Below are positions 7,447 through 37,862 of a DNA stretch of 64,000 bases, in pieces. Positions within the stretch are counted from its first letter, which is position 1. Every line of letters starts with the position of its first letter. Made by a program: the position numbers and the translations under genes. The notes beneath the pieces are model-generated. The model searched no databases and was not told where the DNA came from. It saw only the letters and a program-made list of their open reading frames with translations. This DNA comes from Spirochaetota bacterium (lineage in GTDB: Bacteria > Spirochaetota > GWE2-31-10), in the NCBI GenBank assembly GCA_045133795.1, contig JBGUUT010000126.1, forward strand, positions 7,943-71,942. The letters run 5' to 3'.

Positions 7447-9716
7447 TGAAAAGATTAGGCGGGATAATCACTGTTTTACTTGTCGTTTTTTGTACGGGAG
7501 CAGTGATTTCTTGTGCCGGTACAAAAAATGCAATAGTAAAAGACTCAAACAAAGAAAATAACACATCAAAAAAATCAGCGGAAAATCAGGCGGAATCTTT
7601 ATCAAATCCGCTTGAGGAATCTAACCAAGTCGATAATACGACCGACTCTGTGGAAAATGACGAATTAACACAAGGTTTAAATCAGACTGAAAATGTACAA
7701 CCGGAAGCTTTTTTGGAAACAGAAAGTCTTACAGCACAACTGTTTGATGTTCCGGGAGTTTTGTTTCAGGAAGAGATTGCTGAGGAAGAATCAGAAATCG
7801 AAGCTGCGATTAATCAAGAAGAAATTGCACATAGCGAAAATATTTCCGGTAACGGCGGAAGCGTACTTTTTACATTAAAAAGAGCTGAAGAAATTAAAAA
7901 CGGTGAATCTGTAGAAACAGAAATTACTGAAGCTGATATTTCTAACGTAGAGCGACCGACAATGACTGTTTTAGAAGAACGTTTGCTCGGTTATAACGGA
8001 AAGTCAGTTTTTAATAATGAAGTGGTAACAGCTGAACCTTCTGTGTCTACTTTTGAAAATTATGAAACTGAACTTGCGGTTTTACCGGCAATTTCTGTTG
8101 AGCCGATTAAATCGGAAGCAACTATTCAGGAAAATGCGTATTTAGCACAGATTATTTCATTACCTAAAATTGCGGAAGAGACTTTGGGCGAAATTGCAAA
8201 AGAAGAAAAATTGTCAGATGAAGAAATTGTTGCAGATATTGAAATTGCAGAAGTTTCAGATGATGAAAATATGTTGTTGTCTGAGCCTAAACCTTTAGAA
8301 ATTGCGTTGGGAAATTCTGTGACTCCTTTCGGATTGCCGGGAAGTTTTCTTTCTCCGCTTGCCAATCCGGATACTGTAGTAAAAGCAATGAATGACAAAA
8401 CGGAAAATGCAGAAACAGAACAAGCTGTTGAGGAAAAAGTAATTTCTGATGTTGTCGAAATGAAAGCTTCTAAGAAAGAAGAAAATCCTGTTGAAATAAA
8501 AAAAGATGTTAAAACTCAACAGTATGTTGAAATTCAACAAAAACCGATTTTATCGACAGAATCTGTTCCGGAAGTTGCATTTGCCGCAAAAAAAACGGAA
8601 GAACAGAATGTTGCTTTAAATGAGATACTTTCTGTGAATAAAATAGAAATGCCTGCTGCGGAAAATAAAGCAGTTTCTGCGAAAAAAGCTTTTCCGGAAA
8701 TGAAAGTTTCGGTAGTTTATCCGCAAGTCGGAGAGCCGGAAGAACTTGAAGAAGTTGAAGATTTTGAAATGAAACCGGATTTTGTTTATCCGCAAGAAAA
8801 AATTTCAGGATTGGAAAATCAGGAAACAATTATCAGAATGCAAGGTGACGGTTGGCGAATAGATTCAATGAATCATAATGCAATGAAGCTTTTGGAACGA
8901 AAAAATAATAGAGACGGTAATACGACTTTCAGAATAAAGAACGGTAATGCCGGGACTGAACAGATTAAATTTACTCGCTATAATGAAGATGAAAATCGTC
9001 ATGAAATTCGTGTTTATTCCGTTGATATAAAACCGGTTTTATTAACTGCAGAAAATAATAAAAAGAATGCTCCTAAAGCAAAAAAGGCAAGTAAATCAAA
9101 AGGAATCGATGATTACAGAAAAACTCTTGCAGACCATTTATTTGCGGATGAAAATTTTGCACAGGCTTCTGTATATTATAAGAAGTTGATAGACGAAAAT
9201 ATTGTAGACAGTGAACTTTTGTATAAGGCTGCTCATTCAATGAAAGAAGCCGGAAATACAAAAAATGCGATGGAATATTATCAAAAGAATTTGGCAGAAG
9301 AAGGGAATCCTTTTTATGATGATGCGATTATCGAATATATTCATCTGTTGAAAGAACAAAAAGAGTTTGATAAGGCGATAAATGTTGTTTATGAACGCGG
9401 TTTATCTAAAAGTGTAAGTGAAGATTGTACTCAAAAATTGTACAGAACATTGGGTGATTTATTTTTTAATGTCAAAAATTATACCGAAGCAATCAGAACT
9501 TACAAAACCGTATTAAGTTTGTATCCGGCAGGTAACGGTGAGGATAAAGCAATGTTCTATTTGGCGTATGCTTTGGAATTGCAGGAAAATCCGGAATTTA
9601 AGGAAGCACAACGTTTTTATCGAGAGCTTTTGGATGTTTATCCTGAATCGCAATATGTGAATTTAAGTCGTTCCAGAATAGGTTTTATAGACCGACATTA
9701 TATTAAAGTTAATTAA
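7446..9716 (+). CDS. Lipoprotein with an acidic low-complexity middle region and C-terminal TPR repeats
   Basis: GTG start, a lipobox (VISCAG), and TPR-like helices at the C-terminus (YYKKLIDEN...AMEYYQKNL...). Confidence 0.6.
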   Translation: MKRLGGIITVLLVVFCTGAVISCAGTKNAIVKDSNKENNTSKKSAENQAESLSNPLEESNQVDNTTDSVENDELTQGLNQTENVQPEAFLETESLTAQLFDVPGVLFQEEIAEEESEIEAAINQEEIAHSENISGNGGSVLFTLKRAEEIKNGESVETEITEADISNVERPTMTVLEERLLGYNGKSVFNNEVVTAEPSVSTFENYETELAVLPAISVEPIKSEATIQENAYLAQIISLPKIAEETLGEIAKEEKLSDEEIVADIEIAEVSDDENMLLSEPKPLEIALGNSVTPFGLPGSFLSPLANPDTVVKAMNDKTENAETEQAVEEKVISDVVEMKASKKEENPVEIKKDVKTQQYVEIQQKPILSTESVPEVAFAAKKTEEQNVALNEILSVNKIEMPAAENKAVSAKKAFPEMKVSVVYPQVGEPEELEEVEDFEMKPDFVYPQEKISGLENQETIIRMQGDGWRIDSMNHNAMKLLERKNNRDGNTTFRIKNGNAGTEQIKFTRYNEDENRHEIRVYSVDIKPVLLTAENNKKNAPKAKKASKSKGIDDYRKTLADHLFADENFAQASVYYKKLIDENIVDSELLYKAAHSMKEAGNTKNAMEYYQKNLAEEGNPFYDDAIIEYIHLLKEQKEFDKAINVVYERGLSKSVSEDCTQKLYRTLGDLFFNVKNYTEAIRTYKTVLSLYPAGNGEDKAMFYLAYALELQENPEFKEAQRFYRELLDVYPESQYVNLSRSRIGFIDRHYIKVN

Positions 9717-9728
9717 TTTTGACTGGCT

Positions 9729-9771
9729 GAGACTGCTCAGAGGTAAATTACCGAGCAGTCCGGCTTTTTTG
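9729..9771 (+). terminator. Rho-independent terminator
   Basis: Stem GACTGCTC/GAGCAGTC followed by a T6 run. Confidence 0.5.
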
Positions 9772-9948
9772 TATATATGCAAGTTTTACGTTTTTCCTTT
9801 GGGATTAATAAAGGTGTTCTATACTTGACAAAAGGTAATGTAAAATTTTAAAAGAGTGCCATTAATAAAGGTAAATAAGCTGAAGTGGAAAAATCGGATA
9901 TGATTTTAGCTTCTTCTTAAAAAATAAAAAAAAGAGTGAGGTTCTGTT

Positions 9949-10671
9949 TTGAAAGCGAAACTTTTCTTTTGTTTTCTGTTGAGTTGTGTTTTTTGCCAAT
10001 TAAATGCACAGGAACAATTGCTTGGAGCTAAAGATCTTTTGGCGTCCATATCGGAAACTTATAAAACAACAATAAAAGATTATGAAGCTAAGGTTACATG
10101 GACACAAGAAAAAGATGTTCAGACCGGGAATTTATGGTTCAAAAATCCTCAAAAATTGAGAATAGATTTTACCGAACCTAAAGGTCAAGTTTTATGTACT
10201 AACGGTTATGAATTTTGGGTTTATATTGACAATATGAATGTGACTTTACATCAAGATATTCTTGCAAAGGAAAAAGAAAAAGACGAAAACGGTAAAATCG
10301 TGGTGAAAGAGCAGAATGTTCTTTTGGAAGCTGTAGGTTTTGACAGATTTTTAAAAGATTATGCAATAGAATATCAAGATGCGAAAACATTGCAGGAATA
10401 CACGGACAAAAACGGTAATGTAAGCAGTGTTTATAAATTTAAATTAATTCGTTGGCGTTCAAGCCAAAATGGTTTTAACGTGATTTATTTAACGGTAGAG
10501 CCAAACGGATTAATTCGTAAAGTTGAAGGAATTACGGCTGCATATAAAAAGATAATCTTTGAATTGGATGATTACAAAGTTAATCCGGGGATTGCGGATT
10601 TAAAGTTTGAGTATGATCCTCCGGCACATGCAAATACAGTTAATAATTTTATATCAAATCAAGGGGACTAA
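9949..10671 (+). CDS. LolA-like outer-membrane lipoprotein-sorting fold protein (secreted)
   Basis: TTG start with an RBS and a signal peptide. The size and beta-rich pattern are typical of the LolA/LolB-like family, but this call is tentative. Confidence 0.4.
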   Translation: MKAKLFFCFLLSCVFCQLNAQEQLLGAKDLLASISETYKTTIKDYEAKVTWTQEKDVQTGNLWFKNPQKLRIDFTEPKGQVLCTNGYEFWVYIDNMNVTLHQDILAKEKEKDENGKIVVKEQNVLLEAVGFDRFLKDYAIEYQDAKTLQEYTDKNGNVSSVYKFKLIRWRSSQNGFNVIYLTVEPNGLIRKVEGITAAYKKIIFELDDYKVNPGIADLKFEYDPPAHANTVNNFISNQGD

Positions 10672-10674
10672 TTG

Positions 10675-11829
10675 ATGGAACCATTGGGCTTATATTTAAA
10701 ACAGGTCAGAGAAGGGAAAAAGCTGACTATCGATAAAGTAATTGAAGATACTTTCATTATGAAAAAATTTATTATTGCAATAGAAGACGATGATTTTTCT
10801 TCTTTTCCGGGAGAAGCTTATCTAAAAGGTTTCTTGCGAAATTACGGAGAATATTTAGGGCTTGATCCGTCTGATTTAATTTCACGTTATGAAAGAATAA
10901 AAATGTCAGAAATGCCGTCACCTACAGAGCTTTTGATTCCTAAACCAAAAGCATTTTTCTCAAAAATGTTGCTGATTGTTTTAATTGTAATGCTTTTGGT
11001 TGCTGTAGTTGTCGGTATTGGTGCTATTGCCGTGGCTATGCGTTCGACAGTTGCAAATACAGCCGTAAAGACAAAAGAAGAAGTTAAAACAGAAAAAGAA
11101 AAGGCTCGTTCTGAAAAGAAAAAGAATCTTTTGGTAAAGGAAAAAAAGAAAGCTCAGGTAGAAACAACTGAAGACAGTAAGTCTAAAGTTTTTACATTTG
11201 AAGCTGAAGCTGATAATTTTACAGTTAAAAAAGATGAGAAAATAAGCTTTAAATTGGATGATGAAAAAACATATTCTATTTGGGTGTCAGAATTAGAGCC
11301 GACTGTTATATTGAAAAGTTCGGCAGACAGACAGCAATTTCTTATAGCGAACGGTTTTACAAATAAGTTTGATGTAAACGGCGACGGAAAAGAAGATTTG
11401 GAAATTGTGTTAAGTTTCTGGACAGATAAAAATGCTACTATCGGTTTAAAAAGAATTGCTAATTCTCTTTGGAGTGACAGCAGTATTGACAGTGAATTCT
11501 TTTTACCGGATACAATCGAGGTTATCGGTGAAAAAGCAAGCAAGTCAGAAATTTCACTAATGATTTCATTTTCTGAAATGGCATATTTGAAATATCAAAT
11601 AGATAAAAATCCGGAAGTAGAAAAGACTTATAAGGTTGGTGCTGTTTTAGAATTAAAGGCAAATGAACGTGTTCTTTTGTGGATGTCGGATGCCGGAGCC
11701 GTAAATGCTGATTTTTCAGAGTATAACAAACGAGTTGTTCTCGGAGAAAAAGGTAAAGTTGACGTGAAGATTATCGGTTGGACTAAAAACAATGGTAATT
11801 ACTCATTACAAATGAGTTCATTGAATTAA
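10675..11829 (+). CDS. RodZ-like protein (N-terminal XRE-type HTH, one TM helix, C-terminal DUF4115-like domain)
   Basis: LYLKQVREGKKLTIDKVIEDTFIMKKFIIAIEDDDFSSFPGEAYLKGFLRNYGEYLGLD matches the RodZ N-terminus, followed by a TM helix and a Lys/Glu-rich linker. Confidence 0.55.
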   Translation: MEPLGLYLKQVREGKKLTIDKVIEDTFIMKKFIIAIEDDDFSSFPGEAYLKGFLRNYGEYLGLDPSDLISRYERIKMSEMPSPTELLIPKPKAFFSKMLLIVLIVMLLVAVVVGIGAIAVAMRSTVANTAVKTKEEVKTEKEKARSEKKKNLLVKEKKKAQVETTEDSKSKVFTFEAEADNFTVKKDEKISFKLDDEKTYSIWVSELEPTVILKSSADRQQFLIANGFTNKFDVNGDGKEDLEIVLSFWTDKNATIGLKRIANSLWSDSSIDSEFFLPDTIEVIGEKASKSEISLMISFSEMAYLKYQIDKNPEVEKTYKVGAVLELKANERVLLWMSDAGAVNADFSEYNKRVVLGEKGKVDVKIIGWTKNNGNYSLQMSSLN

Positions 11830-11833
11830 TGGT

Positions 11834-13180
11834 ATGAAAGAAAAAACAGTTTATATTGAATCTTTAGGTTGTGCAAAAAATCAAGTCGATTCCGAAAAAA
11901 TGGCTGCTCTTTTAGAGCAGCACGGTTGGAATTTAGTTGATAATTCCGAAGAAGCTGTTTGTATTATTATAAATACTTGCGGTTTTATAGAAAGTGCAAA
12001 GAAAGAAGCAATTGATGTTCTTTGTGATGCGATAAAACAAAAACAATGCGGTAAATGTCGTATCGTTGTGGCAGCAGGATGTTTTGCTCAACGATACCAT
12101 GACGCGTTAAAAGAAGAATTTGGTGATGATGAAATAGATGTAATTTTCGGAATCGGAGATATTTCGAAAATTGCAGATATTGTGGAAGACACTTTTTTAA
12201 ATAAACAACCGTCAAAGCGTGTTGAGATTCCGCAAATGGCGGATGATAATCTGTTGGATCGTAAAGTTTCCGGTTTTCCGGGGTCTGCGTACTTACGAAT
12301 CAGTGACGGTTGTTCTAATCATTGTACATATTGTGCTATTCCGTTAATCAGAGGGGAGCTTCATTCCAGAAAGATGGAAGTAATTCTAAAAGAGTTGGAA
12401 TTATTATTACCCGGAACATTAAAGGAATTGAATGTAATCAGTCAAGATACAACAAATTACGGAAAGGATATTTATGGTGAAAGTAAGCTTGCAGATTTAC
12501 TGGAAGCTATTGATGATAAACTTTCTGATGGTATCAGAATGCGTTTGTTGTATATGCATCCTGATCATATTACGGACGATTTGCTTGACAGAATGACCAA
12601 ACTTCGTCATTTCGTACCTTATTTTGATTTGCCGTTTCAATCCGCAAGCAAAAATATTTTACAGAAGATGGGGCGTAAAGGAGATTCACAAACTTATCTT
12701 AGTTTACTTGAACGTATTCGACAGCGTTTTCCGGATGCAGTAATTCGTTCTACATTTATAGTCGGATTTCCGGGAGAAACAGCAGAAGATGCCGAAGAAT
12801 CTTTGGAATTTATAAAACGTGCCGGAATGGAATGGGTTGGGGCGTTTGCTTATTCTCCGGAAGAAGATACGCCGGCTTATGATTTGCCGAACAGAGTAAA
12901 AAAGAATGTAGCTAAAAAACGACTTGATAAATTAATGGAAGTTTCGGAAGAAATTGCATTACCGAGACTTGAAAGATTTGTCGGAGAAAGAGTTGAGGTT
13001 TTGATTGAAGAACGCATTGATGAAGAACTTTGTATCGGGCGTTTTTGGGGACAAGCTCCGGATGTTGACGGATTGACAGTTGTTGAAAGTGCTAATGCAG
13101 TTCCCGGAGAAATGATAGATGTCGAAATCCTAAGATTGAACGGAAAAGATTTCTACGGGATACAATCTGTAAATAATTAG
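11834..13180 (+). CDS. rimO: Ribosomal protein S12 methylthiotransferase RimO (radical SAM, MiaB family)
   Basis: N-terminal LGCAKNQVDSE, the radical SAM motif CSNHCTYCAIP and a C-terminal TRAM domain. Confidence 0.8.
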   Translation: MKEKTVYIESLGCAKNQVDSEKMAALLEQHGWNLVDNSEEAVCIIINTCGFIESAKKEAIDVLCDAIKQKQCGKCRIVVAAGCFAQRYHDALKEEFGDDEIDVIFGIGDISKIADIVEDTFLNKQPSKRVEIPQMADDNLLDRKVSGFPGSAYLRISDGCSNHCTYCAIPLIRGELHSRKMEVILKELELLLPGTLKELNVISQDTTNYGKDIYGESKLADLLEAIDDKLSDGIRMRLLYMHPDHITDDLLDRMTKLRHFVPYFDLPFQSASKNILQKMGRKGDSQTYLSLLERIRQRFPDAVIRSTFIVGFPGETAEDAEESLEFIKRAGMEWVGAFAYSPEEDTPAYDLPNRVKKNVAKKRLDKLMEVSEEIALPRLERFVGERVEVLIEERIDEELCIGRFWGQAPDVDGLTVVESANAVPGEMIDVEILRLNGKDFYGIQSVNN

Positions 13181-28868: not shown

Positions 28869-29942
28869 TTATTTAGTTTTTGTTTTTTCCTTATTAATAC
28901 AAGGTAAATCTTTGGGCTTGTAGAGATATTTAATAAATAGAGCCAATAAAATCCCGGATGCAAACATCAAAAATGAAAGTATTTGTCCCATAGAGAATAT
29001 TCCGGCAACAGTTCCGATATATTTACCTGATGAAAAATCGGCAAATTGGTAATCCGGTTGTCGGAAAAATTCAACGATAAAACGTGCGATGGCATAACCG
29101 CAAATATAAAATGTACCTTGATAACCTTGTAACGGTTTGTATTTTCTTGTGATAAACCACATAACAAGGAACAAAAGAATTCCTTCTAAAAATATTTCAT
29201 AAATTTGTGAAGGGTGACGCGGAAGATTAATAGCGGTTACAACGGAATTATTTAACATCATTTTTCCGACAAGACCGTTTATTGTATCTCCGGCAGCCGT
29301 TGTGATAATTCCTGTGGTTTCATTTACTTGCCATTGTAATTTTTCCAAAACTTTTTGTACGTCCGGTAAACTCAAAGGCAGTTTTTCGGCATCCGGAAAA
29401 ATCATTCCTATCGGATTTGCGGTTATTCTTCCGTAAAGTTCGGCATTAATAAAATTCCCCAAACGTCCGAATGCGTATCCTAACGCTGTTGACGGGAAAA
29501 TTACGTCGATGGCTTCACGCCAGTCTATCTTTTTGATAGTAGCGTATGTTGCCAATGAAACAAATATTCCGATTACGGCTCCGTGATATGCCATTCCGGC
29601 AAAACCGGTGAATTGTCCGCGTGAATTTATCGGAATCAAAATTTCTGTCAAATGTCTTGAGAAATACGGCCAATCGTAAACTAAGCAGTAGAATATTCTC
29701 CCGCCTAATATTAATCCGATTACTCCTATAAAAAACATGTTATCCAGTCTTTCATCATTGAGAGTTTTCAGTTTGTCTTTGTAGTAACGAATTTGATAAT
29801 GTGCCAGAACTAAGAAAATAAGAAGTCCGACGATATACATAACTCCGTACCAGCGAATAACACCTAAAAATGATAATGCCGGCGGAAAGTTTACTCCGGC
29901 AAAAACTTCGGGTTTGAGCCAGGATGGAAAATAATTTGGCAT
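28869..29942 (-). CDS. lgt: Prolipoprotein diacylglyceryl transferase
   Basis: Lgt signature region HPSQIYE, the G-rich motif and a polytopic membrane topology. It is longer than typical Lgt. Confidence 0.8.
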   Translation of the reverse strand: MPNYFPSWLKPEVFAGVNFPPALSFLGVIRWYGVMYIVGLLIFLVLAHYQIRYYKDKLKTLNDERLDNMFFIGVIGLILGGRIFYCLVYDWPYFSRHLTEILIPINSRGQFTGFAGMAYHGAVIGIFVSLATYATIKKIDWREAIDVIFPSTALGYAFGRLGNFINAELYGRITANPIGMIFPDAEKLPLSLPDVQKVLEKLQWQVNETTGIITTAAGDTINGLVGKMMLNNSVVTAINLPRHPSQIYEIFLEGILLFLVMWFITRKYKPLQGYQGTFYICGYAIARFIVEFFRQPDYQFADFSSGKYIGTVAGIFSMGQILSFLMFASGILLALFIKYLYKPKDLPCINKEKTKTK

Positions 29943-30102: not shown

Positions 30103-31359
30103 ATGGAGGAAAGCGTGAAAATTTGGATAAAAATGCTTATTGCAATGATTTTTGGAGTTGTTCTGGCAATATTTTTACCGGCAGATAATGCTTCATTTAA
30201 AACAATATTACCGTTGTTGTCGAAAATCTCGTTAAATATATTGTTATATTTTGCAGTGTTGCATACTTTTGTAAAATTTTATGTCGGTATTGTTAATTTG
30301 AAGCAAAAGAAGTTAACTGTCAGAAAATCATTAATTGTTTTCTTTTTATGTGTATTGGCATCTTTAGGATTTACGGCTGCAATATCGGTTTTTGCGATGA
30401 ATATTTTTTCATCACCTCAAGAATCGTTTTTTAATTTTAATCAACATTCTTCTTATAAAATGCAGTTGTTTACGTTTTCAGATTTGCTTTTGAATATTTT
30501 TCCGGATAATGCAGCAACCATTCTTACAAAAAGTACTTCTTTTTTATTTCCGTTGTTAGTTTTAGCATTAATATTGGCTTTAGGTTCATTAAAGAACGGA
30601 AAAAAAGCAGAACCGTTTTATGATATTATGAATTCTTTAGGCGGCATTCTTGATACGATTGAATTTTATGTATTAGAATTTGCTCCGATATTTTCATTTT
30701 TTATTATTGCAGCTTTTATTCGTTACGGATTTTCGGACGTTTCGAATATTGCGATAATTCTTCGTCCTATCGGAATAATTGTTGTGGTATGTATGGTAAC
30801 TCTTGCGGTTATTTCCGTTTTCTTTCATGTATTTTTTAAAATTAATCCGACATATTATTATCGAAATATTTTAGGTGCAGCTCTTGTCGGTGCTGCTACC
30901 GGAAATGTTATTTCGACAATCGTTCCGTTAAATTTGCATTTGAAACGTAATGTAAAATTGAATCATGATATTGTTGATATTTTGGTTCCTATGGGAAGTA
31001 TTTTGAATCAAACCGGAACGGTAATTGTATCTACGGTAGTTTTAATGTCCATAATTGTAGGTTATTCTTTAAATATTCTCACATTGGAATTGCAGTTTTC
31101 TATTTTTATGTTGGTGATTTTATTTTCTTTCAGACTGGACGGAAGTACAGAATTTACTTTCCTTGTCTTGATAGCAATGATATTTAAAGTTCCGAGTTTA
31201 CATTTGGAAGAATCAAGTTATTTGTTGTTTATAGGGTTAGCTCCTTTGTTTTCACGTATTGCCGTATTTATAAATGTTTTTACCAGCGGAATTTATACAT
31301 TGATGGCTGCACGTTATGTGTCCGGTATACAGCCGATGGAAAATCAAGATTTAATTTAA
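30103..31359 (+). CDS. Polytopic membrane protein, possibly a divergent cation symporter (SDF/DAACS-like)
   Basis: About 10 TM segments. The N-terminal region is loosely reminiscent of sodium:dicarboxylate symporters. Confidence 0.35.
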   Translation: MEESVKIWIKMLIAMIFGVVLAIFLPADNASFKTILPLLSKISLNILLYFAVLHTFVKFYVGIVNLKQKKLTVRKSLIVFFLCVLASLGFTAAISVFAMNIFSSPQESFFNFNQHSSYKMQLFTFSDLLLNIFPDNAATILTKSTSFLFPLLVLALILALGSLKNGKKAEPFYDIMNSLGGILDTIEFYVLEFAPIFSFFIIAAFIRYGFSDVSNIAIILRPIGIIVVVCMVTLAVISVFFHVFFKINPTYYYRNILGAALVGAATGNVISTIVPLNLHLKRNVKLNHDIVDILVPMGSILNQTGTVIVSTVVLMSIIVGYSLNILTLELQFSIFMLVILFSFRLDGSTEFTFLVLIAMIFKVPSLHLEESSYLLFIGLAPLFSRIAVFINVFTSGIYTLMAARYVSGIQPMENQDLI

Positions 31360-31376
31360 AATCAAGGATTTGATAA

Positions 31377-32138
31377 ATGATTGAAAAAAGTTATCAGACA
31401 GTAGACGGCCGTGTAATTTCTTATTGTGATAATGAAGCATTTGATAAAAAAACTGTTGTATTTCTTCATGGTTGGGGGTGCGATAAGGAAAATCTTCGTG
31501 GGATTTATTTGTTATTATGTGAAGATTTTCGTGTTATTTCAATAGATTTACCGGGATTCGGGAAGAGTAACCGGCCGGCGGAAACTTGGGGCAGTAGTGA
31601 TTATGCAAAAGACATTGCTGGCTTTTTGAAAAGTTGCGGAATAGAAAAATATAGTTTGTTCGGACATTCTTTTGGTGGCAAGATCGCTTTTCTTATTGCT
31701 TATTTATATCCACAAAATGTGGAAAGATTGGTTTTAATGGCTGCAAATGTTTTGCGTAATCGTCACGGTTTGGCGTGGTATTGGAAAGTTTGGACTTACA
31801 AGCTGATGAAAAAAGTTATGAGTATTTTTTATTCTCGTGAGAAAATTGAAGAGTGGAAAAAAAGATTTGGTTCTGAAGATTATAAAATGTCAGAAGGTAT
31901 GCGTGATATTTTAGTCAAAGAAGTCAATGAAGATTTTTCATCTTTGTTGTCGAAAGTGAATATTCCGGTTTTTTTATATTGGGGAAAAAAAGATACAGCA
32001 ACTCCGCTTTGGATGGCAAAGAAAATAAATCGCAATTTATCAGATTGCGGAATGTTTGTAGTTGATAACGGAACTCATTATCCTTTTTTGCAGGATATGA
32101 GGATTGTTTCGATAATAAAAACTTTTATTTTGAATTGA
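31377..32138 (+). CDS. Alpha/beta hydrolase
   Basis: VVFLHGWG, the nucleophile elbow GHSFGG and a C-terminal His. Confidence 0.7.
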   Translation: MIEKSYQTVDGRVISYCDNEAFDKKTVVFLHGWGCDKENLRGIYLLLCEDFRVISIDLPGFGKSNRPAETWGSSDYAKDIAGFLKSCGIEKYSLFGHSFGGKIAFLIAYLYPQNVERLVLMAANVLRNRHGLAWYWKVWTYKLMKKVMSIFYSREKIEEWKKRFGSEDYKMSEGMRDILVKEVNEDFSSLLSKVNIPVFLYWGKKDTATPLWMAKKINRNLSDCGMFVVDNGTHYPFLQDMRIVSIIKTFILN

Positions 32139-32145
32139 GGGATTT

Positions 32146-33828
32146 ATGTTTACGCTGATGTTTGTTTTTTTCTTGGCGGGTTTGTGTTTTGTCAAGATTA
32201 TTATTCAAGGTATTTATTTGATTCATAAATTACAACAAGTAGGGTATAGCAATGCCAAAATGTTGACGTGGTTGGAAGGTGCGGTTTATAGAAAAGTTTT
32301 GGTTTGGAACTTGTTCGAATTGTTTATTCCGTTATTGGTAATTTTGATATTTTATTTTGTAACTAAAGGTCAATTATCTCTATATAAATGGATTACTTCT
32401 ATTGTAATGGTAAGTGTTTTTATGTGGAAAATTATTCACCCTTTTATTGCCGGGTGGATGGGGCCGAGAGCTAATTACAAGAAGCCTTTGGTTTATACGG
32501 CTCGTGTAAAACGTCTAATGTTTACATTGTGTCTTTTGGTGTTTATAATATTATTGCTTACTTTTTCATCGGTAATTTACCCTATAGAGAGTTTTTCTCT
32601 CAGTTCTTGGAACTTTTTACGTTACAATGCGTTTATTTTGCTTTACAGTGTTTTAACTCCTATTTTTATATTAATTGCTAATTTATTAAATGCTCCGGCA
32701 GAAATGCTTGTTCGTCATATCTATTTTGTAAAAGCTAAAAATAAACTTAAAAAATCGCAAATTGATTCTATCGGTATAACCGGAAGTTTTGGGAAAACGT
32801 CGACAAAATTTTTTTTGGCAAGCATACTGAATTCTAAATACAAAACGCTAACAACGCCCTCATCTTTTAATACACCTATGGGAATTTCTAAAGTGTTAAA
32901 CGGGGAGGATTTAAATGATTATAAATATTTTACGGCAGAAATGGGAGCGGATCATGTCGGTGATATAAAAGAACTTTGTAATTTAGTTCAGCCTAAAGCC
33001 GGAATTATTACGGCCGTAGGAATTCAACACCTTGAGACATTTGGAACTCCTGAAAATATTTTAAAGACAAAATTAGAGCTTTTTGACGCAATTCCGGATG
33101 AAGGCTTCGGTATTTATAATTATGATTGTACTATGTTGCGTAACGAAATTGCGGAGCGTTCTTATAATTTCCCTTTATATACGTACAGTGTTGAACCGCA
33201 AAATTTTTCGAGTGTTGATTTGTATGCCAAAGATATTATTCAAAGCCGTGAAGGTTTGTCTTTTTTGGCAATTTTTAAGGACGGCAGAGAATTAAAAATA
33301 AAAACCGGTTTATTAGGACGTCATAATGTACAAAATCTTTTAGCAGTGATTTTGGCAGCGTGGAAAAGCGGATTAAGTGATAAAGAAATAGAGTTTGGAA
33401 TGAGAAATATTGAAGCTGTGGAACATCGTCTAAAACGTATAGATTCCGGTAGCGGTGTTTTAGTTTTAGATGATGCTTTTAATTCGAATTATAACGGTGC
33501 GATTGAAGCTGTAAATGTATTAAATGAAATCGGAGAACATAAAAAGATAATTGTTACACCCGGATTCGTAGAATTGGGCGAAATGGAAGAAGAACAAAAT
33601 CGAAAGTTCGGTAATTATATGGCATCAAAAATTGATTATGCAATTCTTGTCGGAGGGGGAAAAAGTATGTCTATCCGTGACGGACTTTTGGATAACGGTT
33701 TTATTTATGACCATATTTTTTATGTAAACAGCTTATCTGAGGCTCAGGAAGTTTTGGCTAAGATATTGAGTTTTGGTGATGTTGTTTTATTTGAAAATGA
33801 TTTGCCGGATGTCTATTCTGGTAAATAG
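32146..33828 (+). CDS. Mur ligase family protein (MurF-like central and C-terminal domains) fused to an N-terminal roughly 200-aa polytopic membrane domain
   Basis: ITGSFGKTSTK P-loop, DDAFNSN, and 5-6 predicted TM helices in residues 1-190. Confidence 0.6.
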   Translation: MFTLMFVFFLAGLCFVKIIIQGIYLIHKLQQVGYSNAKMLTWLEGAVYRKVLVWNLFELFIPLLVILIFYFVTKGQLSLYKWITSIVMVSVFMWKIIHPFIAGWMGPRANYKKPLVYTARVKRLMFTLCLLVFIILLLTFSSVIYPIESFSLSSWNFLRYNAFILLYSVLTPIFILIANLLNAPAEMLVRHIYFVKAKNKLKKSQIDSIGITGSFGKTSTKFFLASILNSKYKTLTTPSSFNTPMGISKVLNGEDLNDYKYFTAEMGADHVGDIKELCNLVQPKAGIITAVGIQHLETFGTPENILKTKLELFDAIPDEGFGIYNYDCTMLRNEIAERSYNFPLYTYSVEPQNFSSVDLYAKDIIQSREGLSFLAIFKDGRELKIKTGLLGRHNVQNLLAVILAAWKSGLSDKEIEFGMRNIEAVEHRLKRIDSGSGVLVLDDAFNSNYNGAIEAVNVLNEIGEHKKIIVTPGFVELGEMEEEQNRKFGNYMASKIDYAILVGGGKSMSIRDGLLDNGFIYDHIFYVNSLSEAQEVLAKILSFGDVVLFENDLPDVYSGK

Positions 33829-33918
33829 AATTTTTTCAGTGAAGAAAATAGGGTATTTTATGAGTAAAAAATATTTTTTATTCATAAAATAAAAAAAAAC
33901 TATTTTTTAGAAAAATAA

Positions 33919-35348: not shown

Positions 35349-37862
35349 ATGAATGGTGAAAAAGATAAGTTTGCACCAGAGAATAAGCCTAAGGATAGTC
35401 CTTTAGGGAAAATCATTGCGACATTGATTGTTGGCGGGATTACACTTTTTCTCTGTATATCTCTTTTCGGTAAGTTCGGAAAGCTATTAATTCCTACACT
35501 TGTTCTTGTAGCAGGTGGGTTCCTTCTTCTTACAGTTTGGCTGAAAAGTTTGTATATTTATAGATACTTATATTCAGCAATGATTATTATCAGTATATTT
35601 ACGCTTTATCCAATATTTTATACAATATTTATTGCGTTTACTAATTACGGTACCGGTCATTTATTAGTAAAAGAAAGTGCTAAGGAAGAATTGTTAAACA
35701 GTAAATGGCATGTATATGAAGATGAAGAACCTTTGTATGCCGAATTCTTTATATCTGAACAATATGTAACAGATGTTAATGAAAAATGGAAAGCTGAGTA
35801 TGACAAGTATCAAAAAGCACTTGAAAATGCAGGCAGTGAATCTAAAGAAGAAAAGATTGAAGATGATTGGAGTAGAAAAGAAATCGAAGTAGTTAACAGC
35901 TGTTTCGAAAGCTTGAAATTATCTGATGTTGTTGCATTCTTTTTTGAAACAGAAGAAATTGAAGTTGGAGCAGATGCTCTTCCTTTGGAAGCTAGCGTAA
36001 GTTCTGATGCAAGCAATGATACGGTTGCATTTCCTAAAGTTTATCAAGCGAAGTATTTCAAAGAAGGACATGACGAGGGATTCCGTTTAGAACCTGTAGC
36101 TTTTGATAAGTTAAGTGAACTGACAAAAGGTATGTATTTGGTTAATGAACAAGTAAGAGTTAATCCTGAAGCAGATGATGATTATGATTATGATGATGAA
36201 TCTTATGCAGTTGCATTAAATGATATCGCTGTATTAAAATTAGCATTAGAAAAACTTCCTTTTATGTTATACGATGAAACAAGTGATGTAGAAAAGAAAT
36301 TCTTAAACAGTAGAACTAATGAGTTCATGAGAAAAGAAAAACTTTTCACAGAAAAAGAAGATGGTAATGTTTATCGATTAACAGAACTTGGAAACGGTAA
36401 ATTTGGTTATGAAACTCGTGTTTGGGAAGAAAATAAAAACGGTGTTTTTGTTGTTACTGAAGACGGAAATAAACCAACTTTCTGGAAAGAATATGAATTA
36501 CCGGCATTGGAATATGTTTATTCAATGTTCAAGTTGTCTAGCAATAAGGAAGTAGAAAAATTCTTAGAAAGTAATTTTTCTAAATTTGCTTTAGACCAAG
36601 ATTATGTGCCTTCTTTTGAAAAAATCAAAGGGGTGAAAAAAACTGAAGTTTCTGAGGCTGATTTAGTTCCTGTTTTTGATGAAATTAAAGCGGTTAATAA
36701 AAAAATCAAAGAATTTAATCGTGAAATCCCATTGATGAAAAAGGCTTTTATTGAACAAAAAAGTCAGGAAATTGCCAGACTTAATAAAGAAGCCGAAGGT
36801 GAAATGGCTAAAAAAAGAGATGAAATTGCTTCTTTAAAAAATAAGATTAAAGATTTGAAAAAGCAATCTTTGAGTAAAGCAGATCATCCGTATTTAGTAG
36901 TTGAACAAATTACTGAAAATAATAAAAAGATTAAAATCTTAAGTAATGAAATTCGTCGTTTAAAAATAGACCACGAAGGTCGTTTAGTTCAGTTGAAATC
37001 AGTGGATTTCCCAAAATTAAAGAATGTAAAACTTAAATTTGAAGAAAATTCAAATATTGAGTCTGTTCTTGAACCGGGATATATGGTTACTGTTGCGTTG
37101 AAAAACTTTACTAAGATTTTTACGACAAGAAATATTACTTCTCCGTTCTTACGTGTATTTATTTGGACAGTTTTGTGGTCATTGTTCTCTGTATTATCTT
37201 CATTTGCAGCCGGTTTGGCATTGGCATTGGTATTAAATGCCGGAGATTTGAAAGGACGATATTTCTACAGAACATTGTTTATTTTACCGTATGCAATCCC
37301 TTCATTTATAACAATCTTAATGTGGGGAGGATTCTTAAATGAAGATTTTGGTATCATAAACCTTGCAACTGGCGTTACAATTCCATGGTTAAGTGACCCT
37401 AACGGAATTTTGCCTAAAGTAAGCTGTGTTGTTGTAAACTTATGGTTAAGTTTCCCTTATCAGATGATTATAAGCTTGGGTGCATTACAGTCAATTGATG
37501 CTAGTATGTATGAAGCTGCAGATGTTGATGGTGCAACAAAAGCACAACAATTCTGGAAAATTACATTGCCGTTATTGTTAGTTACTTTAGGACCAATGTT
37601 GGTTGGATCATTTGCGTTTGCATTTAACAACTTTGGTGGTATCTTCCTTTTAACAGGTGGTGGTCCGGTTATGGATCCGGGTGTTCTTCCGGGACAAACA
37701 GATATTTTGATTTCTTATACATATAAACTGGCATTTGGTGCTAATGAAACAGATTATGGTTTAGCTTCTGCTATTGGTATTATCGTATTCTTCATCATTG
37801 GTACTATTACATTCTTACAGTTCAAGTATACAGGAGCTTTCAAGGAGGTAGACAATGCTTAA
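35349..37862 (+). CDS. ABC sugar permease, MalF-like, with a roughly 490-aa periplasmic insertion
   Basis: Three N-terminal TM helices, a large coiled-coil-rich soluble domain, then the core permease with the EAA-like region (YEAADVDGATKAQQFWKITLP). Confidence 0.75.
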   Translation: MNGEKDKFAPENKPKDSPLGKIIATLIVGGITLFLCISLFGKFGKLLIPTLVLVAGGFLLLTVWLKSLYIYRYLYSAMIIISIFTLYPIFYTIFIAFTNYGTGHLLVKESAKEELLNSKWHVYEDEEPLYAEFFISEQYVTDVNEKWKAEYDKYQKALENAGSESKEEKIEDDWSRKEIEVVNSCFESLKLSDVVAFFFETEEIEVGADALPLEASVSSDASNDTVAFPKVYQAKYFKEGHDEGFRLEPVAFDKLSELTKGMYLVNEQVRVNPEADDDYDYDDESYAVALNDIAVLKLALEKLPFMLYDETSDVEKKFLNSRTNEFMRKEKLFTEKEDGNVYRLTELGNGKFGYETRVWEENKNGVFVVTEDGNKPTFWKEYELPALEYVYSMFKLSSNKEVEKFLESNFSKFALDQDYVPSFEKIKGVKKTEVSEADLVPVFDEIKAVNKKIKEFNREIPLMKKAFIEQKSQEIARLNKEAEGEMAKKRDEIASLKNKIKDLKKQSLSKADHPYLVVEQITENNKKIKILSNEIRRLKIDHEGRLVQLKSVDFPKLKNVKLKFEENSNIESVLEPGYMVTVALKNFTKIFTTRNITSPFLRVFIWTVLWSLFSVLSSFAAGLALALVLNAGDLKGRYFYRTLFILPYAIPSFITILMWGGFLNEDFGIINLATGVTIPWLSDPNGILPKVSCVVVNLWLSFPYQMIISLGALQSIDASMYEAADVDGATKAQQFWKITLPLLLVTLGPMLVGSFAFAFNNFGGIFLLTGGGPVMDPGVLPGQTDILISYTYKLAFGANETDYGLASAIGIIVFFIIGTITFLQFKYTGAFKEVDNA

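Follow-up and report, generated by a model that had tools for sequence, protein, structure and literature searches.

A probable membrane-anchored MurF and its EstV-like hydrolase neighbour in a Spirochaetota contig

The DNA analysed here, referred to as the window, is a stretch of 64,000 nucleotides from a Spirochaetota bacterium (assembly GCA_045133795.1, contig JBGUUT010000126.1, positions 7,943 to 71,942 of the forward strand). Near its middle lies a complete ATG-to-stop open reading frame (ORF) on the positive strand that encodes a 560-amino-acid (aa) protein, called the ligase below, in which the central and C-terminal domains of a Mur ligase follow an N-terminal membrane domain. This gene probably encodes the MurF of its lineage, the UDP-N-acetylmuramic acid (UDP-MurNAc)-tripeptide:D-Ala-D-Ala ligase, in a widespread membrane-anchored variant. 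Features of the gene, in window coordinates, are as follows:

32146..33828, positive strand: membrane-anchored MurF-type ligase ORF, 560 aa (ORF listing, Pfam, NCBIfam, AlphaFold2)
32146..32754, positive strand: N-terminal membrane domain, residues 1-203 (five predicted transmembrane helices)
32224..32247, positive strand: motif H27-x-L-Q30-x-x-G-Y34, predicted first cytoplasmic loop (alignment conservation)
32479..32517, positive strand: basic motif K112-K-P-L-V-x-T118-x-R120-x-x-R123-L124, predicted second cytoplasmic loop (alignment conservation)
32776..33360, positive strand: Mur ligase central (ATP-binding) domain, residues 211-405 (PF08245)
32779-32808, positive strand: P-loop T212-K221, within the central domain
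33424..33792, positive strand: Mur ligase C-terminal domain, residues 427-549 (PF02875)
33787..33810, positive strand: family-specific C-terminal motif L548-F-E-N-D-L-P-D555 (invariant in alignments A1 and A2)

Pfam assigns residues 211-405 to Mur_ligase_M (PF08245, E = 2e-41) and residues 427-549 to Mur_ligase_C (PF02875, E = 2e-9), in agreement with an earlier reading of the bare sequence (the original prediction) that had placed these two domains, with an ITGSFGKTSTK P-loop, at residues of about 200-560. The N-terminal Mur ligase domain was absent from the Pfam scan of the protein, and residues 1-205 matched no Pfam family, even at E ≤ 10. The top NCBIfam model for the ligase is murF (TIGR01143), with 210 bits over profile positions 65-403 of 418, while the MurE, MurD and MurC models reach 64-74 bits. 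The margin of the murF model over every other single Mur ligase exceeds 130 bits if the bifunctional MurE/MurF model, whose match comes from its MurF half, is left aside. The cyanophycin synthetase model, for which the cutoff is 850 bits, gives 27.5 bits and the FolC model 20 bits, no PgsB/CapB model is among the NCBIfam matches at E ≤ 0.01, and no ATP-grasp domain was found with Pfam or NCBIfam. The comparison of MurF, cyanophycin synthetase and PgsB, which had been proposed as a check, comes out in favour of MurF.

The relationship to MurF extends to the catalytic residues and the predicted fold. The P-loop sequence ITGSFGKTSTK occupies residues 211-221, and K217/T218, E265, H295 and K309 of the ligase align with K111/T112, E158, H188 and K202 of Escherichia coli MurF (1GG4). 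K217, E265, H295 and K309 are invariant across the family in alignments A1 and A2, and the lysine corresponding to K309 is known to be carbamylated in Mur ligases. The MurF motif DDSYNAN pairs in the alignment with DDAFNSN, residues 442-448 of the ligase. As judged by alignment, the complete Mur ligase catalytic set is present, comprising the P-loop, the Glu and His that bind Mg and the K202-equivalent lysine; given this match to the E. coli enzyme and the invariance across the family, the ATP-dependent Mur ligase machinery is intact. The seven best sequence matches in the PDB are all MurF (E = 3e-31 to 3e-22), with alignments beginning at about residue 92-105 of the canonical enzyme, and the ten best Foldseek matches of the ligase model to the PDB are also MurF (E = 7e-24 to 1e-19, ~368 aligned columns). 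Canonical MurF (E. coli 1GG4, Pseudomonas aeruginosa 4CVK, Acinetobacter baumannii 4QF5 and Thermotoga maritima 3ZL8) shares 22-25% identity with the ligase over ~368 columns and the same fold for the central and C-terminal domains, as well as the P-loop, the Glu, the His, the K202-aligned lysine and a DDxxNxN motif. The helix that links domains 1 and 2 of canonical MurF is kept, with ligase residues 177-210 aligned to MurF residues 94-105. By sequence as well as by predicted fold, the ligase domains thus stand closest to MurF, a resemblance that the original prediction had described.

The N-terminus is built differently, as canonical MurF domain 1 is gone and a bundle of five helices, ~200 residues in length, stands in its place. 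Kyte-Doolittle hydropathy places five hydrophobic segments inside residues 1-183. An AlphaFold2 model built on 68 homologues (predicted local distance difference test score 89.7, predicted template modelling score 0.80) contains long helices at residues 2-31, 46-72, 77-101, 119-144 and 155-203 and a short helix at 36-43, after which comes the ligase fold; the last predicted transmembrane helix runs on into the cytoplasmic linker helix. The replacement of the MurF N-terminal domain by a polytopic membrane domain, rather than a soluble region, is thereby upheld by Pfam, hydropathy and the structural model. Of the five to six helices first proposed, five is the most likely count, supported by hydropathy and by the long helices of the model. 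Since the loops at residues 27-50 and 102-123 are rich in Lys and Arg and the ATP-dependent domain must be cytoplasmic, the five helices would leave the N-terminus outside and both the ligase domains and the conserved basic loops in the cytoplasm.

Three conserved motifs lie on this predicted cytoplasmic face. In the first loop, the 68 sequences of alignment A2 all share Q30 and Y34, and at least 90% of them retain H27 and G33; an H..Q...Y pattern occurs in 55 of 60 family members drawn from genome loci. The residues of the basic motif from K112 to L124 in the second loop are at least 90% conserved in alignments A1 and A2, and the full KKPLVxTxRxxRL motif occurs in 46 of the same 60 proteins. 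The third motif is P184-x-E186. The basic motif is a candidate substitute for the lost UDP-binding domain 1 or, alternatively, a docking site.

Database relatives of the ligase number in the thousands, measure 520-565 aa and carry the same two Pfam domains; annotation pipelines mostly label them MurF. The closest come from Spirochaetota metagenome-assembled genomes (MAGs), at up to 99% identity, and relatives at ~40% identity occur in Caloranaerobacter, Caloramator and other Clostridia. A survey of one genome per species, scanned with the C-terminal pattern D[VI][VI]LFEND, identified at least 588 species genomes with a relative. Because the same continuous architecture recurs throughout these database proteins and genomes, a chance ORF or a miscalled start can be ruled out for the ligase. 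The survey also returned MAG loci labelled Alistipes, Bacteroides, Muribaculaceae or similar (L074, L048, L050, L052, L054, L058, L061, L073, L076 and L078). Presence of the family in Bacteroidota was set aside, as the nearest database relatives of the 'Alistipes' protein of L074 (72-91% identity) are named Ruminococcus, and the Bacteroidota labels or bins of these loci look unreliable.

Gene neighbourhoods were counted at the 80 best loci of the survey, where ORFs were called and clustered. An alpha/beta hydrolase gene lies directly upstream of the ligase gene at 65 of the 80 loci, mostly with gaps of -8 to +40 nt where it is present, and a gene for the D-Ala-D-Ala ligase Ddl lies directly downstream at 58, of which 53 also have the hydrolase. 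Exceptions among loci with enough flanking sequence are few (L047, L063, L069 and L075). Tight linkage joins the ligase family with ddl and the gene of an EstV-like serine hydrolase, the only two recurrent neighbours; no PgsC/PgsA-like capsule genes recur among the neighbours in the 80 loci. An apparent hydrolase-ligase fusion of 761 aa at L069 was rejected as an over-extended ORF in a GC-rich genome, with the match limited to residues 309-761. A second Mur ligase match at L022, from a Clostridiaceae MAG, is explained by a cyanophycin synthetase fragment unrelated to the ligase (positions 6-1421 of the locus, positive strand, 653 bits to TIGR02068), which is cut by the contig end and lies ~8 kb upstream of the hydrolase-ligase-ddl trio.

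In five Poribacteria species the gene order is rsmH-ftsL-PBP (penicillin-binding protein)-murE-hydrolase-ligase-ddl-mraY-murD-ftsW-murG-murC. Here the trio sits between murE and mraY and occupies the murF slot of the division and cell wall (dcw) cluster. At the Poribacteria locus L005 the neighbouring proteins score 540 (MurE), 348 (Ddl), 346 (MraY), 384 (MurD) and 497 bits (MurC) against their NCBIfam models, all over the cutoffs, and the NCBIfam scan found no second MurF in this dcw cluster. An ISKra4-family transposase gene lies between hydrolase and ligase inside the dcw cluster of this MAG (L005 8490-9809, positive strand).

The ordinary, above-cutoff MraY of these clusters bears on a reading in which the MurF reaction takes place at the membrane on a lipid I/II-type tripeptide instead of soluble UDP-MurNAc-tripeptide. 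A membrane-integral enzyme that lacks the UDP-binding domain and carries conserved basic loops at the membrane surface would suit such a substrate, and the ddl linkage fits it as well as it fits a conventional MurF; however, MraY normally requires the pentapeptide nucleotide, the canonical helix between domains 1 and 2 is retained in the ligase, and a lipid-linked MurF substrate has no known precedent, making this reading quite unlikely.

The composition of the trio, with a D-Ala-D-X ligase, a MurF and a hydrolase, also resembles vancomycin resistance (van) clusters, some of which carry an extra murF. The trio could on this basis be an accessory Van-like module that builds an alternative peptide ending (e.g., D-Ala-D-Lac or D-Ala-D-Ser) and in which the hydrolase removes the usual dipeptide; the occurrence of the trio in a Bacillaceae genome (L071) would be in keeping with such a module. 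However, the neighbouring Ddl proteins reach 348 and 340 bits with the D-Ala-D-Ala ligase model NF002528 (cutoff 262) and fall far under every Van cutoff, the Poribacteria trio is placed inside the core dcw cluster, genes like vanH, vanX, vanR or vanS do not recur nearby, and the hydrolase is an alpha/beta serine hydrolase rather than a VanX/VanY metallopeptidase. A Van-like module is accordingly considered highly unlikely. The Bacillaceae genome in question is that of the isolate Pseudalkalibacillus sp. R45, in which the hydrolase, membrane MurF and Ddl genes span positions 9160-12742 of the locus; Bacillaceae normally have a canonical ddl-murF pair, and this trio may be an additional set gained by horizontal transfer, or it may come from contamination.

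A membrane-anchored MurF has a published counterpart in Helicobacter pylori, whose MurF is reported to have four N-terminal transmembrane domains (as cited in PMC9448923). The enzyme has been called essential and belongs to the Csd5/CcmA cell-shape complex (PMC9507126), and it is described as an inner-membrane peptidoglycan precursor enzyme (PMC9448923, PMC9507126). The gene is HP0740, 1485 bp in length (PMC6501431). Going by these descriptions, H. pylori MurF resembles the ligase in having several transmembrane helices directly before the MurF central domain. In Campylobacter jejuni, MurF (Cj0795c), an alpha/beta-fold hydrolase (Cj0796c) and Ddl (Cj0798c) are encoded as neighbours (PMC5530802), which is the same trio as at the family loci; deletion of Cj0796c was unsuccessful and its authors suggested a role in peptidoglycan synthesis (PMC5530802), so the hydrolase is possibly essential there. 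No paper was found, in a literature search of incomplete coverage, that treats membrane-anchored MurF and the hydrolase as a general family.

These observations address the proposal, made in the original prediction, that membrane anchoring signals a membrane-associated acceptor, such as a lipid-linked or capsule-like polymer, and the corresponding reading of the gene as a MurF-derived paralogue acting alongside a separate canonical MurF. The poly-gamma-glutamate synthetase PgsB/CapB offers a parallel, as it too is a membrane-attached amide ligase of the Mur ligase superfamily; PgsB has a single N-terminal anchor. The exchange of domain 1 for a polytopic membrane domain, the score under the MurF cutoff and the family's own invariant motifs are all compatible with a paralogue. 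The context of the ligase family, in contrast to that of PgsB/CapB, consists of peptidoglycan precursor genes: the ddl linkage is conserved, the dcw murF slot is filled with no other MurF there, and PgsC/PgsA-like genes do not recur. Similarity to PgsB/CapB or cyanophycin-type enzymes is no higher than background, and the H. pylori protein, which also has N-terminal transmembrane domains, is described as an essential peptidoglycan precursor enzyme (PMC9448923, PMC9507126). A paralogue with a membrane-associated or capsule-like substrate is thus improbable, contradicted by the ddl flanking, the Poribacteria gene order, the MurF matches and the H. pylori enzyme.

Assignment of the ligase as the MurF of this lineage draws on the best-scoring family model, the PDB sequence and Foldseek matches, the invariant catalytic residues, the ddl and hydrolase linkage, the fully conserved hydrolase triad, the Poribacteria dcw slot and the H. 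pylori and C. jejuni literature. A membrane-anchored form of MurF has already been noted in H. pylori, and the ligase is no new kind of ligase. The outcome comes close to the case that the original prediction had named as its own refutation, 'simply the lineage-specific MurF'.

Several observations weigh against this assignment. The score of the ligase, 210 bits, is under the curated TIGR01143 cutoff of 288.6 bits, as is that of the Poribacteria orthologue at 249 bits; the shortfall corresponds to the missing domain 1. In canonical MurF the UDP part of the substrate is held by domain 1 (~residues 1-90), whose place is taken in the ligase by the membrane domain. The GDMxELG sequence of canonical MurF has TPG(F/M)VELG as its counterpart in the ligase family, and the C-terminal KGSR has the invariant LFENDLPD, differences that could reflect altered specificity. 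H. pylori MurF, at ~494 aa with four reported helices, does not match the 560 aa and five predicted helices of the ligase. Within the 64-kb window, tblastn searches with the ligase domain and Poribacteria Ddl, MurE, MurD, MurC and MraY found no ddl, murE, mraY, other dcw genes or second Mur ligase; unlike in C. jejuni, ddl lies outside the operon, where a transporter gene of the SDF family is found instead.

The remaining features of this operon in the window are as follows:

30103..31359, positive strand: sodium:dicarboxylate/amino-acid symporter family gene (Pfam SDF, E = 4e-28)
31377..32138, positive strand: alpha/beta hydrolase, 253 aa, EstV-like (Pfam Abhydrolase_1, E = 8e-25)
32137..32142, positive strand: GAGGGA, resembling a Shine-Dalgarno sequence, which overlaps the stop codon of the hydrolase gene and lies 3 nt ahead of the ligase ATG (read from the sequence)
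33800..33836, positive strand: hairpin with a trailing T-run, terminator-like, at the end of the ligase ORF (consensus scan only)

The Abhydrolase_1 match bears out the alpha/beta hydrolase gene first noticed upstream of the ligase, although the gap between the two genes is 7 nt (stop codon at 32136-32138, ATG at 32146) and not the 8 bp initially given. Because GAGGGA overlaps the hydrolase stop codon just ahead of the ligase ATG, translational coupling of hydrolase and ligase is suggested. The hydrolase has no signal peptide, and its top NCBIfam model is the EstV family lipase NF058580; the match spans profile positions 15-227 of 230 and reaches 150 bits, short of the 300 bits set as the equivalog cutoff. 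Its PDB sequence relatives are generic alpha/beta hydrolases only. The catalytic triad of Ser98 (in GHSxGG), Asp206 and His234 is conserved in 68 of 68 family members. The same 68-member alignment contains an invariant G-S-x-D-Y motif in the lid region, at hydrolase residues 165-169 (window 31869-31883), that may be a signature of the MurF-associated hydrolase subfamily. EstV (HP0739), a family V esterase/lipase and the source of the best model for this hydrolase, presumably adjoins murF in H. pylori. EstV cleaves short-chain esters in vitro (as cited in PMC3741291).

With the ligase as MurF, the enzyme would perform the last cytoplasmic step of peptidoglycan precursor synthesis, and UDP-MurNAc-pentapeptide would be made at the membrane surface, beside MraY, the consumer of this product. 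The HxLQxxGY and KKPLVxTxRxxRL loops, possibly together with the hydrolase, may assume the role of the lost domain 1 in holding or docking the UDP substrate, and the hydrolase would be an active enzyme working with the ligase. A further proposal, possible if rather doubtful, is an obligate unit of two proteins, the EstV-type hydrolase and membrane-anchored MurF, that would replace three-domain MurF in Campylobacterota, many Clostridia, some Spirochaetota, Poribacteria and Synergistota. The hydrolase would then be essential, either as a substitute for the substrate-holding function of domain 1 or by editing or processing the D-Ala-D-Ala or UDP-MurNAc-peptide pool at the membrane. If such a unit exists, the 'lipase' EstV would gain a function in the cell wall, and peptidoglycan precursor synthesis would include a step or subunit not yet described.

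As an essential enzyme, MurF is a target for antibiotics; to our knowledge, all structural and inhibitor work on it has used the soluble three-domain form. A MurF without the UDP-binding domain, integral to the membrane and genetically linked to a conserved serine hydrolase, appears to serve many bacteria, among them gut Clostridia and, judging from the literature, H. pylori. A membrane MurF implies a different mode of substrate binding and a possible extra essential partner, and inhibitors aimed at contacts in domain 1 would then not transfer to it. For the window itself, the gene would be the expected cell-wall enzyme, with no new pathway, and the real interest is limited to the co-conserved, possibly essential hydrolase and to substrate binding without domain 1.

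The symporter gene lies 17 nt upstream of the hydrolase gene, giving the operon order SDF-family transporter, hydrolase, ligase, which is repeated in the spirochaete loci L001 and L002, both without ddl in the operon. The symporter gene is probably the first gene of the operon in this lineage, and its product may, speculatively, supply an amino-acid substrate.

Two further genes in the window have unusual architectures. A prolipoprotein diacylglyceryl transferase (Lgt) of 357 aa is encoded on the negative strand at 28869-29942, and its match to the 240-position Pfam profile stretches from residue 28 to residue 334, implying that ~70 residues are inserted internally. On the positive strand at 35349-37862 lies the gene for an unusually long ABC sugar-transporter permease (837 aa) with a large, charged, coiled-coil-like insertion before the membrane domain, and an 885-aa counterpart is found at the matching position in L001.

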